DNA of 64,000 nucleotides from Escherichia coli (GTDB lineage: Bacteria; Pseudomonadota; Gammaproteobacteria; Enterobacterales; Enterobacteriaceae): NCBI RefSeq assembly GCF_045037415.1, contig NZ_CP173440.1; one strand, written 5' to 3'. Numbering within the stretch: position 1 is the first letter of the stretch; every line of letters begins with the position of its first letter. Positions 29,719 to 32,096 of the stretch are shown in pieces. The translations under genes and the position numbers were made by a program. Under the pieces are notes generated by a model. The model was not told the DNA's origin and ran no database searches. It saw only the letters and a list, made by a program, of their open reading frames with translations.

Positions 29719-29737
29719 TACTGGTTATATATACAGT
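29719..29737 (+). promoter_or_regulatory. LexA (SOS) box-like operator
   Basis: TACTGGTTATATATACAGT fits CTG-N10-CAG with a TA-rich core (compare E. coli umuDC TACTGTATATAAAAACAGTA). Lies immediately 5' of the intron start. Confidence 0.5.
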
Positions 29738-31646
29738 GTGCGCCGGGAACCGGTTAGAGATCAAGGGGTGAAAGTCCCCGACCATTGAAGGACCAGCAAT
29801 CCACAAGGTCCCCGAGTCATGCGTTGCATACCGCGAGGTATGGGGCGAAGCGTTGACAGGGGTGTTGACAGGCCAGCCATTGAGCCACGAAATGTATATT
29901 AAATTACCGGGTGCCGACGTTGTACTGTTAACGGAAGGCAACATCATAGGGTGCGATACTGCGAGTGCCACATGGACCCGGCGGGGTCTGAGACCCTGGC
30001 ATGTCAATACGATCTCTACGCGGGAACCGGGAGATCTCCCCTCTGACCATCTGCCAGTGTCGGAGATGGCCCGCACCGGGAAGACGAGGAGTCATAGCCG
30101 GTGATGTACGGAGAGGAGAAGTCGGACTCGCTCATAGTAGCGGCGAAGCAGGCGAACAACCCGAAAGGAGCGGAGTCAGTGGAGCGAAGGAGCGGGGCCA
30201 AGGGGAACGCGGAACAGCCACACATGCGCCGGACACAGAGCCGGGAAAGCATGTCACAGAGGCTGTCACGCGTGCGGGAAGCTGCGAAGCAGCGGAAGAA
30301 AGAACGGTTTACAGCATTGTTCCACCTGCTGACAGTCGAAGCACTGGAAGCCGCATTCCTCTCCCTGAGCAGGAAAGCGGCCGCCGGAGTGGATGGCATC
30401 AGGTGGATGGACTACGCCGGAAACATGAAGAACAACATAACAGATCTGCACCGGAGGCTACATCAGGGCAGCTACAGGGCGCAGCCCGGCAGGCGTCACT
30501 ACATCCCAAAAGCGGATGGAAAACAACGCCCGCTCGGCATCGCCTCGCTGGAGGACAAGATCGTCCAGTATGCGCTGGTGAAAATCCTGAACGCAGTCTA
30601 TGAAAACGACTTTATGGGGTTCTCATACGGGTTCAGACCCGGGCGAAGCCAGCACGATGCACTGGACGCACTGGCCACAGGGCTGGTACGCACTAACGTA
30701 AACTGGGTACTGGATGCCGACATCAGTCAGTTCTTCGACAGGGTGAGCCACGAATGGCTGATCAGGTTCACAGAGCATCGGATCGGCGACCGGAGGGTAA
30801 TCAGGCTCATACGTAAGTGGCTCACAGCCGGGACGTCGGAGGAGGGTCAATGGCGAGCAACGGAGGAAGGCACCCCACAGGGTGCGGTCATCTCACCGCT
30901 GCTGGCAAACATATACCTCCACTACGTCTTCGATCTGTGGGCGCATCAGTGGCGACGTCGCTATGCCACAGGCAATGTGGTAATGGTCAGATACGCCGAT
31001 GACATCGTCATCGGGTTCGACAAACGATACGATGCCCGGCGCTTCCGTATAGCCATGCAGCGCAGACTGAGGGAGTTCGGACTCACGGTTCACCCGGAGA
31101 AAACCCGTCTGATGGAGTTCGGCCGCTTCGCTGCCGAAAACCGTGCCATCAGGGGAAAAGGCAAACCAGAAACGTTCAACTTCCTCGGGTTCACGCACAT
31201 CAGCGGGAAAGATCGCAACGGCAGGTTCATGCTGATACGAAAGACCCGCCGGGATCGGATGACGGCAACTCTGAAAGCCATCAAAGACGGTCTGCGAAGG
31301 CGCTGGCATTACTCAATCCCCGAACAGGGAAAATGGCTCAGGAGAGTGGTTCAGGGATACCTGAACTATCACTCGGTACCGGGCAACTTCCCCACCATGC
31401 AGAAGTTCAGGACACACGTAACAAACCTCTGGCGCCGGGCGCTCAGGCGCAGGAGCCAGAAGGATGATACGACCTGGACGAAAGCAAACAAACTGGCAGC
31501 CGCATGGCTACCAAGGGTTCGGGTTCTTCATCCATGGCCTGTGGAGCGGTTCACCGCCAGACACCCGAGGCAGGAGCCCGGTGCGTAAATCGCGCACGCC
31601 GGGATCTGTGCGGGGGGTATCCGGTAACGGGTATCCCTACCGCGAC
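29738..31646 (+). mobile_element. group II intron (about 1.9 kb) with intron-encoded protein
   Basis: 5' end GTGCG; domain V-like hairpin with AGC triad at ~31575-31612; GTAA (GNRA) hairpin; terminal ...CGCGAC (AY end). Encloses an RT/maturase ORF. Boundaries inferred by eye. Confidence 0.7.
30101..31588 (+). CDS. group II intron reverse transcriptase/maturase
   Basis: RT motifs AAGVDGI, PQGAVISPLLANIYL, YADD (RYADDIVIGF), FLGF; maturase X-domain motif QGYLNYH. No obvious HNH endonuclease domain. True start may be downstream of 30101. Confidence 0.85.
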   Translation: MMYGEEKSDSLIVAAKQANNPKGAESVERRSGAKGNAEQPHMRRTQSRESMSQRLSRVREAAKQRKKERFTALFHLLTVEALEAAFLSLSRKAAAGVDGIRWMDYAGNMKNNITDLHRRLHQGSYRAQPGRRHYIPKADGKQRPLGIASLEDKIVQYALVKILNAVYENDFMGFSYGFRPGRSQHDALDALATGLVRTNVNWVLDADISQFFDRVSHEWLIRFTEHRIGDRRVIRLIRKWLTAGTSEEGQWRATEEGTPQGAVISPLLANIYLHYVFDLWAHQWRRRYATGNVVMVRYADDIVIGFDKRYDARRFRIAMQRRLREFGLTVHPEKTRLMEFGRFAAENRAIRGKGKPETFNFLGFTHISGKDRNGRFMLIRKTRRDRMTATLKAIKDGLRRRWHYSIPEQGKWLRRVVQGYLNYHSVPGNFPTMQKFRTHVTNLWRRALRRRSQKDDTTWTKANKLAAAWLPRVRVLHPWPVERFTARHPRQEPGA

Positions 31647-31673
31647 GTTTTTAAGTGATCGGAGGTTGCGCCT

Positions 31674-32096
31674 ATGTTCTTAATTCCAATGGAAAATCCT
31701 GAGAAAATCGCCATCCCTTTATTTCTCGAGCGGTGTGCAGCTGGCTTCCCCAGCCCTGCCCAGGATTATACTTCCAGTGAGCTAGACCTGAACGATTATT
31801 GCATCAGGCATCCATCCGCAACATATTTCGTGCGAGCTCAGGGAAACAGCATGCAGGATGTCGGTATGCGTGATGGAGATTTGCTGGTGGTGGACCGTTC
31901 TCTGCGTCCTCAACATCGCGATATCGTGATCGCCGAGGTGGACGGCGGCTTCACTGTTAAACAGCTCCAGACCACTCCCAGACTGGCCCTGTTGCCTATG
32001 AACAATGCTTATTCACCAATTTACCCAGACCCCGATGAACTGACAATTTTTGGCGTGGTGACTCATTGGGTTCATCGTGCCCGGGGTAATCTGTAA
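31674..32096 (+). CDS. umuD: UmuD-like translesion polymerase accessory subunit
   Basis: 140 aa, collinear with E. coli UmuD (CGFPSPA, HPSATYFV, GNSM, DIVIAEVDGGFTVK). Confidence 0.9.
   Translation: MFLIPMENPEKIAIPLFLERCAAGFPSPAQDYTSSELDLNDYCIRHPSATYFVRAQGNSMQDVGMRDGDLLVVDRSLRPQHRDIVIAEVDGGFTVKQLQTTPRLALLPMNNAYSPIYPDPDELTIFGVVTHWVHRARGNL

Follow-up and report, generated by a model that had tools for sequence, protein, structure and literature searches.

The 64,000-nucleotide stretch of Escherichia coli DNA analysed here (contig NZ_CP173440.1; hereafter the window) carries a group II intron between a LexA-type operator and the umuD gene. The insert is an intact copy of the mobile intron Kl.pn.I5, also named Se.ma.I1, and comparison of its copies indicates, with a probability that we put at about 85%, that the natural homing site of this intron is the LexA operator (SOS box) itself. 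In about 75 of 77 distinct 5′ contexts on plasmids, prophages and chromosomes, the intron begins flush after CTG-N10-CAG(T/C); the chance of finding CTG-N10-CAGT flush at a given position is about 6e-5. The contexts were pooled from plasmid copies, E. coli chromosomal copies and a scan of IMG/VR with the first 18 nucleotides (nt) of the intron, which returned 88 loci. Their logo, TACTGTATATA(A/T)A(A/T)ACAGT|AT, equals the LexA consensus: C, T and G at positions -17 to -15 are conserved in 73-76 of the 77 contexts, and C, A and G at -4 to -2 in 75-76. The apparent exceptions comprise CAGC variants, two boxes whose left half is degenerate (e.g. the Klebsiella sbmC box, locus L108), a box truncated by a later ISKox3, tandem intron copies, and two loci of a different relative that shares the 18-mer.

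Occupied operators and the umuDC junctions

The element itself is already known, Kl.pn.I5 / Se.ma.I1 being its name in the bacterial group II intron database. The window intron is 99.95% identical over 1909 nt to the intron of CP023932, which has been named Se.ma.I1/Kl.pn.I5 (Ramirez et al. 2019, PMC6764390). It is found in 4,313 of 72,556 PLSDB plasmid records (about 6%), 3,496 of them at an identity of at least 99%, and in 218 of 5,426 complete E. coli genomes (4%), where it occupies 45 chromosomal places. The carriers include IncL/M (pOXA-48-like), IncFII(K), IncR and NDM-bearing IncHI1B/FIB plasmids. One K. pneumoniae strain has been described with 11 copies of the intron, and two related strains differ in copy number, 11 versus 6 (PMC6965571). 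Copies that are at least 99.7% identical were found at dozens of separate sites; these near-identical copies are an indirect sign that Kl.pn.I5 may be active in self-splicing and retrohoming.

Identical plasmid and chromosomal copies, in intergenic positions and with conserved intron-binding site (IBS) sequences, were reported by Leclercq and Cordaux (2012, PMC3522654), who found no free sites with a consensus that was over-strict, being built from 3 copies. The text of that paper contains neither 'promoter' nor 'palindrom' and does not name the LexA operator as the homing site, and the same is true of PMC6764390 with regard to the operator. In open-access papers and preprints we could not find a description of LexA-box homing by a group II intron; subscription journals lay outside the search, and a prior mention is possible. 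The part that appears to be undescribed is the LexA operator as homing site.

The occupied boxes belong to a wide range of replicons. On IncFIB/IncFII(K), IncL/M pOXA-48-like, IncR, IncFII/IncR and ColRNAI backbones, CTG-N10-CAGT always precedes the intron; six unrelated plasmid contexts, with both orientations relative to umuD, show this, besides a cloacin promoter. In four of these backbones the intron is directed away from umuD, and on the ColRNAI plasmids it lies within the promoter of a cloacin/colicin-like gene. On E. coli chromosomes the intron stands after TACTGTATATAAAAACAGT before umuDC, after TACTGTATAAATAAACAGT beside tisB/istR, and after the sbmC box, and boxes in islands and prophages are occupied as well; in K. 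michiganensis a copy adjoins istR (Rfam RF01400). LexA is well known to bind and repress at the E. coli boxes of umuDC, sbmC and tisB, the ones occupied in loci L009, L013 and L008. The genes downstream of sense-oriented copies encode UmuD homologues, SbmC, DinI, a UmuD-like phage protein, cloacin and the 79-residue phrog_3893, a phage protein to which no function is assigned. In a crude count based on open reading frames (ORFs), about 27 copies run in the direction of the neighbouring gene and 6 against it; 3 copies are flanked by genes on either side, and 7 have no gene beside them. This recurrence at many SOS genes, in either orientation, was missed by the earlier note on the window.

Two unusual copies were met in the survey. 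In an IMG/VR contig (IMGVR_UViG_2880021599_000003, 6088-11832) four head-to-tail copies, spaced by 1909 nt, stand behind a single LexA box; the array may be a true concatemer or may have arisen in assembly. An assembly labelled Arthrobacter mobilis (NZ_JAAZSQ010000040.1) encodes a 100%-identical reverse transcriptase (RT) in a LexA-box context of the klebicin/cloacin type, as on Klebsiella ColE1 plasmids, probably as a contamination of that assembly.

In the window, the operator TACTGGTTATATATACAGT (29719-29737) has the form CTG-N10-CAG and agrees with the LexA consensus TACTG(TA)5CAGTA at 17 of 20 positions, with CTG and CAG both kept; it is the sole AT-rich CTG-N10-CAG site of the 64 kb. The CAG ends 1 base 5′ of the intron, and the 19-mer abuts it. 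The intron (29738-31646, + strand, 1909 nt; 5′ GUGCG ... AC 3′ in the RNA) opens with GTGCG at 29738 and terminates in ...CCCTACCGCGAC (...CCGCGAC) at 31646. Then follows the native umuD leader, which forms the 27-nt 3′ exon GTTTTTAAGTGATCGGAGGTTGCGCCT (31647-31673, + strand) with the Shine-Dalgarno sequence GGAGG at 31661-31665, and the ATG of umuD at 31674, which opens an ORF of 140 residues. The umuD (31674-32096) and umuC (32096-33367) ORFs, on the + strand, make up the operon of the SOS translesion polymerase V. The earlier note had placed the intron exactly between a LexA-type operator and the umuD ribosome-binding site (RBS), and the junctions at 29738 and 31646 are in agreement with this.

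Removal of the intron restores the native allele, which was found in an intron-less related plasmid; the same note had expected a normal spacing of operator and start codon. The window is 100% identical, one gap aside, to IncHI1B/IncFIB Klebsiella pneumoniae plasmids of about 340 kb, in which ltrA (WP_004178082), umuD (UmuD, WP_004181893) and umuC (UmuC, WP_004181894) are annotated. A sister IncHI1B/IncFIB plasmid, NZ_CP079139, shares the CRISPR-umuDC neighbourhood and reads TTATATATACAGT|GTTTTTAAGTGATCGGAGG with nothing between (uninterrupted sequence ...TTATATATACAGTGTTTTTAAGTGATCGGAGG...). Because this plasmid joins the exons exactly, both intron boundaries are fixed to the base. Its operator is identical to that of the window, and all 20 operator positions are unchanged by the insertion, since G1 of the intron stands in for the exon G. 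Within the plasmid family of the window, 230 records have the intron and 144 are empty.

Other alleles of this interval were also seen. Some sister plasmids (e.g. NZ_CP072809.1, 34969-38894) carry the ISL3-family element ISCfr12 in the intron/umuD interval, which sets the RT gene and umuD 1.3 kb further apart. Plasmid pEGY_KP8 (CP154636.1, 221364-222563) has a 200-nt, ORF-less remnant of the intron at the identical umuD site; in this internal deletion the first ~110 nt of the intron are joined to the last ~90 nt, which hold domains V and VI (D5-D6), and both splice sites are kept.

Intron anatomy and target recognition

That the insert is a group II intron, as the earlier note had proposed, is borne out by its ribozyme and by its protein. 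The domain I (D1) core at 29771-29996 (+ strand) matches the full length of the Rfam model RF02005 (group-II-D1D4-6) with 186.6 bits and E = 1e-54, against a gathering score of 49. The ORF of the RT/maturase (30101-31588, + strand, 495 residues) scores 376 bits with the NCBIfam model for group II RT/maturases, TIGR04416, which has a cut-off of 300. In Pfam the ORF matches RVT_1 only (1e-46), and no endonuclease (HNH) domain was found by Pfam in the 495 residues. About 360 nt of intron precede the ORF, and its stop codon falls in the D5 loop. Domain V (31573-31607, + strand), placed by the minimum free energy (MFE) fold of the 3′-terminal 80 nt and by the family consensus, has an AGC triad, a 2-nt AC bulge and a pentaloop; the G of the triad opposes A, not U. 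Domain VI (31609-31644, + strand), from the MFE fold and the family alignment, has a bulged UA at 31638-31639, with A31639, 8 nt from the 3′ splice site, as the candidate branch point. The D5/D6 structure was reproduced in an alignment with 19 relatives, in which compensatory changes occur at 12 of 28 pairs. As predicted from these models and folds, nothing in the anatomy departs from what is usual in endonuclease-less, IIB-like bacterial introns.

The first hairpin loop of domain I (29743-29753) is one base short in the window copy, which reads CCGG-GAA-CCGG where the others have CCGG-GAGA-CCGG. The extra base is present in every other copy examined, including those on otherwise identical plasmids, and these copies are 1910 nt long. 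The loop varies across the family; a mutation private to this copy or an error in sequencing would account for the missing base.

The operator also supplies the intron-binding sites of the 5′ exon, with IBS2 at -12 to -6 and IBS1 at -5 to -1. Three exon-binding sites (EBS), all on the + strand, are complementary to the target. EBS2, AUGUAUAU (29892-29899), is unpaired in the MFE fold, complements the (TA)n centre of the box and pairs with positions -13 to -6, at 7 of 8 positions here. EBS1, ACUGU(U) in a hairpin loop (29924-29929), is matched to the CAGT half-site of the operator, where it pairs with ACAGT. EBS3 is the U at 29989 (intron nt 252); its partner is the first base of the 3′ exon (+1), a G in the window and an A at most sites. 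EBS1 and EBS2 together form 12 of 13 pairs with the window box and on average 11.3 of 13 with the occupied boxes. Sequence comparison thus shows the intron RNA to read the right-hand side of the box, 14 of its 20 nt, through EBS2, EBS1 and EBS3, in 12-14 contiguous base pairs. Among 43 sites, +1 is occupied by A at 37, by G at 5 and by T at a single one, a preference that fits the U of EBS3; T occupies +2 at 35 of the 43. The boxes differ between sites at -6, -8, -13 and -14, whereas the intron is at least 99.7% identical throughout.

The pairings can be followed across the intron family. A set of 80 loci encoding RT relatives was collected, with 93-100% amino acid identity in Enterobacteriaceae and 55-70% in the remainder, which come from Acidobacteria, Actinobacteria, Proteobacteria, Planctomycetes and others; ten relatives match RF02005 at 135-199 bits and share the same D1 architecture. 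The intron 5′ ends of the distant relatives, located by anchoring on the EBS1 hairpin, lie at unrelated, non-palindromic, non-LexA sequences. In 40 members the EBS1 loop was set against the final 5-8 nt of the 5′ exon, and the anchored complementary run averaged 5.4, compared to 2.76 ± 0.19 in permuted pairs (maximum 3.45 in 2000 permutations). The EBS2 region, compared with positions -6 to -17 in 32 members, gave a mean run of 5.56 versus 4.00 ± 0.17 (maximum 4.66) after permutation. A single D1 column, corresponding to 29989 of the window, is complementary to the +1 base in 30 of 31 members, a count for which no permuted control was computed. An IIA-type delta pairing by the GU located 5′ of EBS1 was considered as a source of the +1 A/G and +2 T preference and rejected: the GU is invariant and does not covary with +1 or +2, giving 8 of 27 pairs compared to 7.7 expected. 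Since EBS1, EBS2 and a separate EBS3 covary with the exons and the GU does not, recognition is assigned to the IIB type rather than to IIA or IIC. Taken together, the occupied boxes and these pairings strongly support, at the level of sequence, systematic homing into LexA boxes by base pairing.

The idea that relatives in other phyla target LexA motifs of their own was also rejected, as their flanks are unrelated sequences. Five of these relatives, from unrelated metagenome-assembled genomes (L116, L134, L143, L154 and L135), are found repeatedly after ...GAGCGCTTA or ...GACGCTTA, with a matching EBS1, UAAGCG; this suggests that another conserved homing site exists in the family.

Predicted SOS expression and competing explanations

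The only + strand sigma-70-like promoter scored within 29350-31750 is a predicted one at 29694-29722, with the -35 element TAGGCA (29694-29699), a 17-nt spacer and the -10 element TATACT (29717-29722), agreeing with 9 of 12 consensus positions. The box, which stands 27 nt before umuD when the intron is set aside, overlaps the predicted -10, the overlap being with the left half of the operator; this is the usual arrangement in umuDC-type promoters. Transcription would be expected to start near 29729-29731, which would give a 5′ exon of about 7-9 nt. That the intron and its RT stand under SOS control is likely, and can reasonably be expected from the unchanged operator and from the predicted promoter that overlaps its left half. 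The earlier note had held that umuDC expression requires splicing, which is an overstatement: the RBS and ORF of umuD are intact 3′ of the intron and no + strand terminator-like site was found inside the intron, so that unspliced read-through RNA could be translated and splicing is probably not strictly needed for the translation of UmuD.

In the mechanism that we propose, the intron would reverse-splice directly after CAGT. Because the box is palindromic and present at many SOS promoters, the intron has come to occupy umuDC, sbmC, tisB/istR, dinI, colicin/cloacin and prophage SOS genes in either orientation, on plasmids, prophages and chromosomes of Enterobacteriaceae. As the RT has no endonuclease domain, cDNA synthesis would probably be primed from nascent strands at replication forks, as described for other endonuclease-less introns (e.g. 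PMC5010178). Upon cleavage of LexA, transcription would run from the 7-9-nt 5′ exon, which holds IBS1 and a portion of IBS2, through the intron and its RT gene into umuDC. During the SOS response, splicing would free the intron ribonucleoprotein and leave an umuDC mRNA identical to the native one; UmuDC could be made from this RNA or from read-through transcripts that are not spliced.

The neighbourhood of the locus provides another possible source of transcripts. A type IV-A3-like plasmid CRISPR-Cas system lies directly upstream (26654-29344). Its csf-like genes (26654-28397) are annotated in sister plasmids as Csf2, Cas6 and a DinG-like helicase, and its CRISPR array (28463-29344), with at least 15 repeats of GTATTCCCCCCGTGTGCGGGGGTTATCGG at a 61-nt period, is co-directional with the intron and ends about 400 nt upstream of it. 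Read-through from the array could feed transcripts with a long 5′ exon. Downstream of umuDC, an Xre-antitoxin/RES-toxin pair and a hok/sok system (33387-34378 and 35297-35472; the sok RNA matches RF01794 with 96.9 bits) constitute ordinary plasmid maintenance cargo.

Several observations weigh against the reading presented here, or against parts of it. The transcription start, the induction of the RT by SOS and the splicing are predictions from sequence, and the predicted 5′ exon contains only part of IBS2, so that splicing may be inefficient. The antisense copies on IncFII(K), IncL/M pOXA-48-like and IncR plasmids cannot be driven by the SOS gene promoter; there the intron takes the place of what stood before the box, as seen from umuD, and that promoter is probably weakened as a result. 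The Rfam D5-D6 model RF00029 gave no match on the window copy even at E ≤ 1, and the similarity of the RT to solved structures (the GsI-IIC, T.el4h and E. rectale RTs, all at about 1e-41 to 1e-43) does not separate classes A-F. Finally, the pairing leaves the choice of strand at the palindrome unexplained: the occupied strand offers 11.27 pairs and the other strand 11.24, yet there is a sense bias of about 4:1 and the preference for T at +2. These figures rule out strand choice by better EBS pairing (the other strand of the window box has C at -5), and a further determinant, be it protein contacts, replication direction or selection, must be involved.

Could the arrangement at umuD have arisen without any targeting of LexA boxes? 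The earlier note had suggested that the operator palindrome might serve as a stem-loop target, and a single fortuitous insertion by a class C (IIC-like) intron, recognising the palindrome as a DNA stem-loop in the way that terminators and attC sites are recognised, would account for the palindromic target, for a compact ribozyme with so short a region before the ORF, and for GsI-IIC being the closest solved RT, although a IIB RT scores with a comparable E-value. However, the DNA hairpin folds with only -1.3 kcal/mol (z = 0.27 relative to shuffled sequences), EBS2 is present and covaries, the target sequence is conserved and complements EBS2, EBS1 and EBS3, and the targets of the relatives are non-palindromic; the recurrence at about 75 sites speaks against a single event, and we consider this explanation very improbable. 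Still less credible is that insertion is random or weakly specific and that selection retains only the copies beside LexA boxes. Selection probably shapes orientation, but nothing specific favours this account, and the junction is base-exact at every site, with 11-13 pairs between EBS and box, while the family-wide EBS-exon covariation shows that pairing defines the site. It might also be supposed that box and intron travel as one mobile unit, as the box is always flush with the intron 5′ end, in which case their adjacency would say nothing about targeting. This we regard as having practically no chance of being correct: the empty allele retains a complete box, the boxes vary between sites and the intron does not, and the umuDC, sbmC and tisB boxes are well established in E. 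coli without the intron.

A stronger competitor accepts homing into LexA boxes and treats the link to the SOS response as incidental. The box would then be a conserved, multi-copy intergenic safe harbour, insertion would mostly damage or silence the SOS gene, and the intron would be expressed by read-through or not at all. The antisense copies fit this well, being common in major plasmid families and replacing the sequence upstream of the box, as do the very short 5′ exon predicted from the SOS promoter, the persistence of an ORF-less deletion derivative at the same site, and the co-directional CRISPR array that could supply read-through transcripts. On the other hand, the sense bias with the SOS gene, crude as the ORF-based count is, and the preservation of operator and promoter upstream of the intron are not expected from it, nor is the co-circulation of intron and empty alleles; on balance we hold an incidental SOS link to be rather unlikely.

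Relation to known introns and significance

Known targets of bacterial group II introns are conserved genes, insertion sequences, intrinsic terminators and attC sites. Kl.pn.I5 resembles RmInt1 of Sinorhizobium meliloti, an endonuclease-less IIB-type intron, in having an RT without endonuclease, in its EBS1, EBS2 and separate EBS3 and probably in priming at replication forks; the likeness concerns these features, and RmInt1 homes into ISRm2011-2 whereas Kl.pn.I5 homes into the operator of a transcription factor. With class C (IIC) and IIC-attC introns it shares intergenic or regulatory insertion beside palindromes and the lack of an endonuclease domain. However, IIC introns recognise a stem-loop and an IBS1 of 3-4 nt and have no EBS2, in contrast to Kl.pn.I5, in which the complementarity extends over 13-14 nt and includes EBS2, and the palindrome is thermodynamically negligible. 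Mobility or expression under LexA or SOS control is known from integron integrases, SXT and other integrative and conjugative elements (SXT/ICE), lambdoid and Gifsy-type prophages and colicin plasmids. Such SOS-coupled elements carry a LexA box or LexA-like repressor of their own, whereas Kl.pn.I5 inserts, site by site, behind operators that already exist in the host or plasmid.

Homing into the operator of a transcription factor would constitute a new class of target for group II introns. Such a target would couple a retroelement to stress-inducible expression by position alone, and would place a 1.9-kb ribozyme in the control regions of the SOS regulon. The family may also serve as a natural model of intron retargeting, with relatives built on the same scaffold reading entirely different sequences.

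We put forward, as a tentative proposal, that Kl.pn.I5 is an SOS-gated retroelement, with LexA both repressing the captured promoter of the intron and its RT and physically occluding the homing sites. If this were so, DNA damage, antibiotic stress or the entry of single-stranded DNA by conjugation would induce the intron ribonucleoprotein and unmask every LexA box together, leading to bursts of spread across the LexA regulon on plasmids, in prophages and on chromosomes. The SOS gene at each new site would be re-tuned, by a sense copy through an added splicing or read-through step and by an antisense copy through the severing of upstream promoter elements, and expression of the error-prone polymerase would be altered on pOXA-48 and on the NDM IncHI1B/FIB hybrid resistance plasmids. 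Through its adjacency to error-prone polymerase genes, the intron could influence stress-induced mutagenesis in clinical Enterobacteriaceae.

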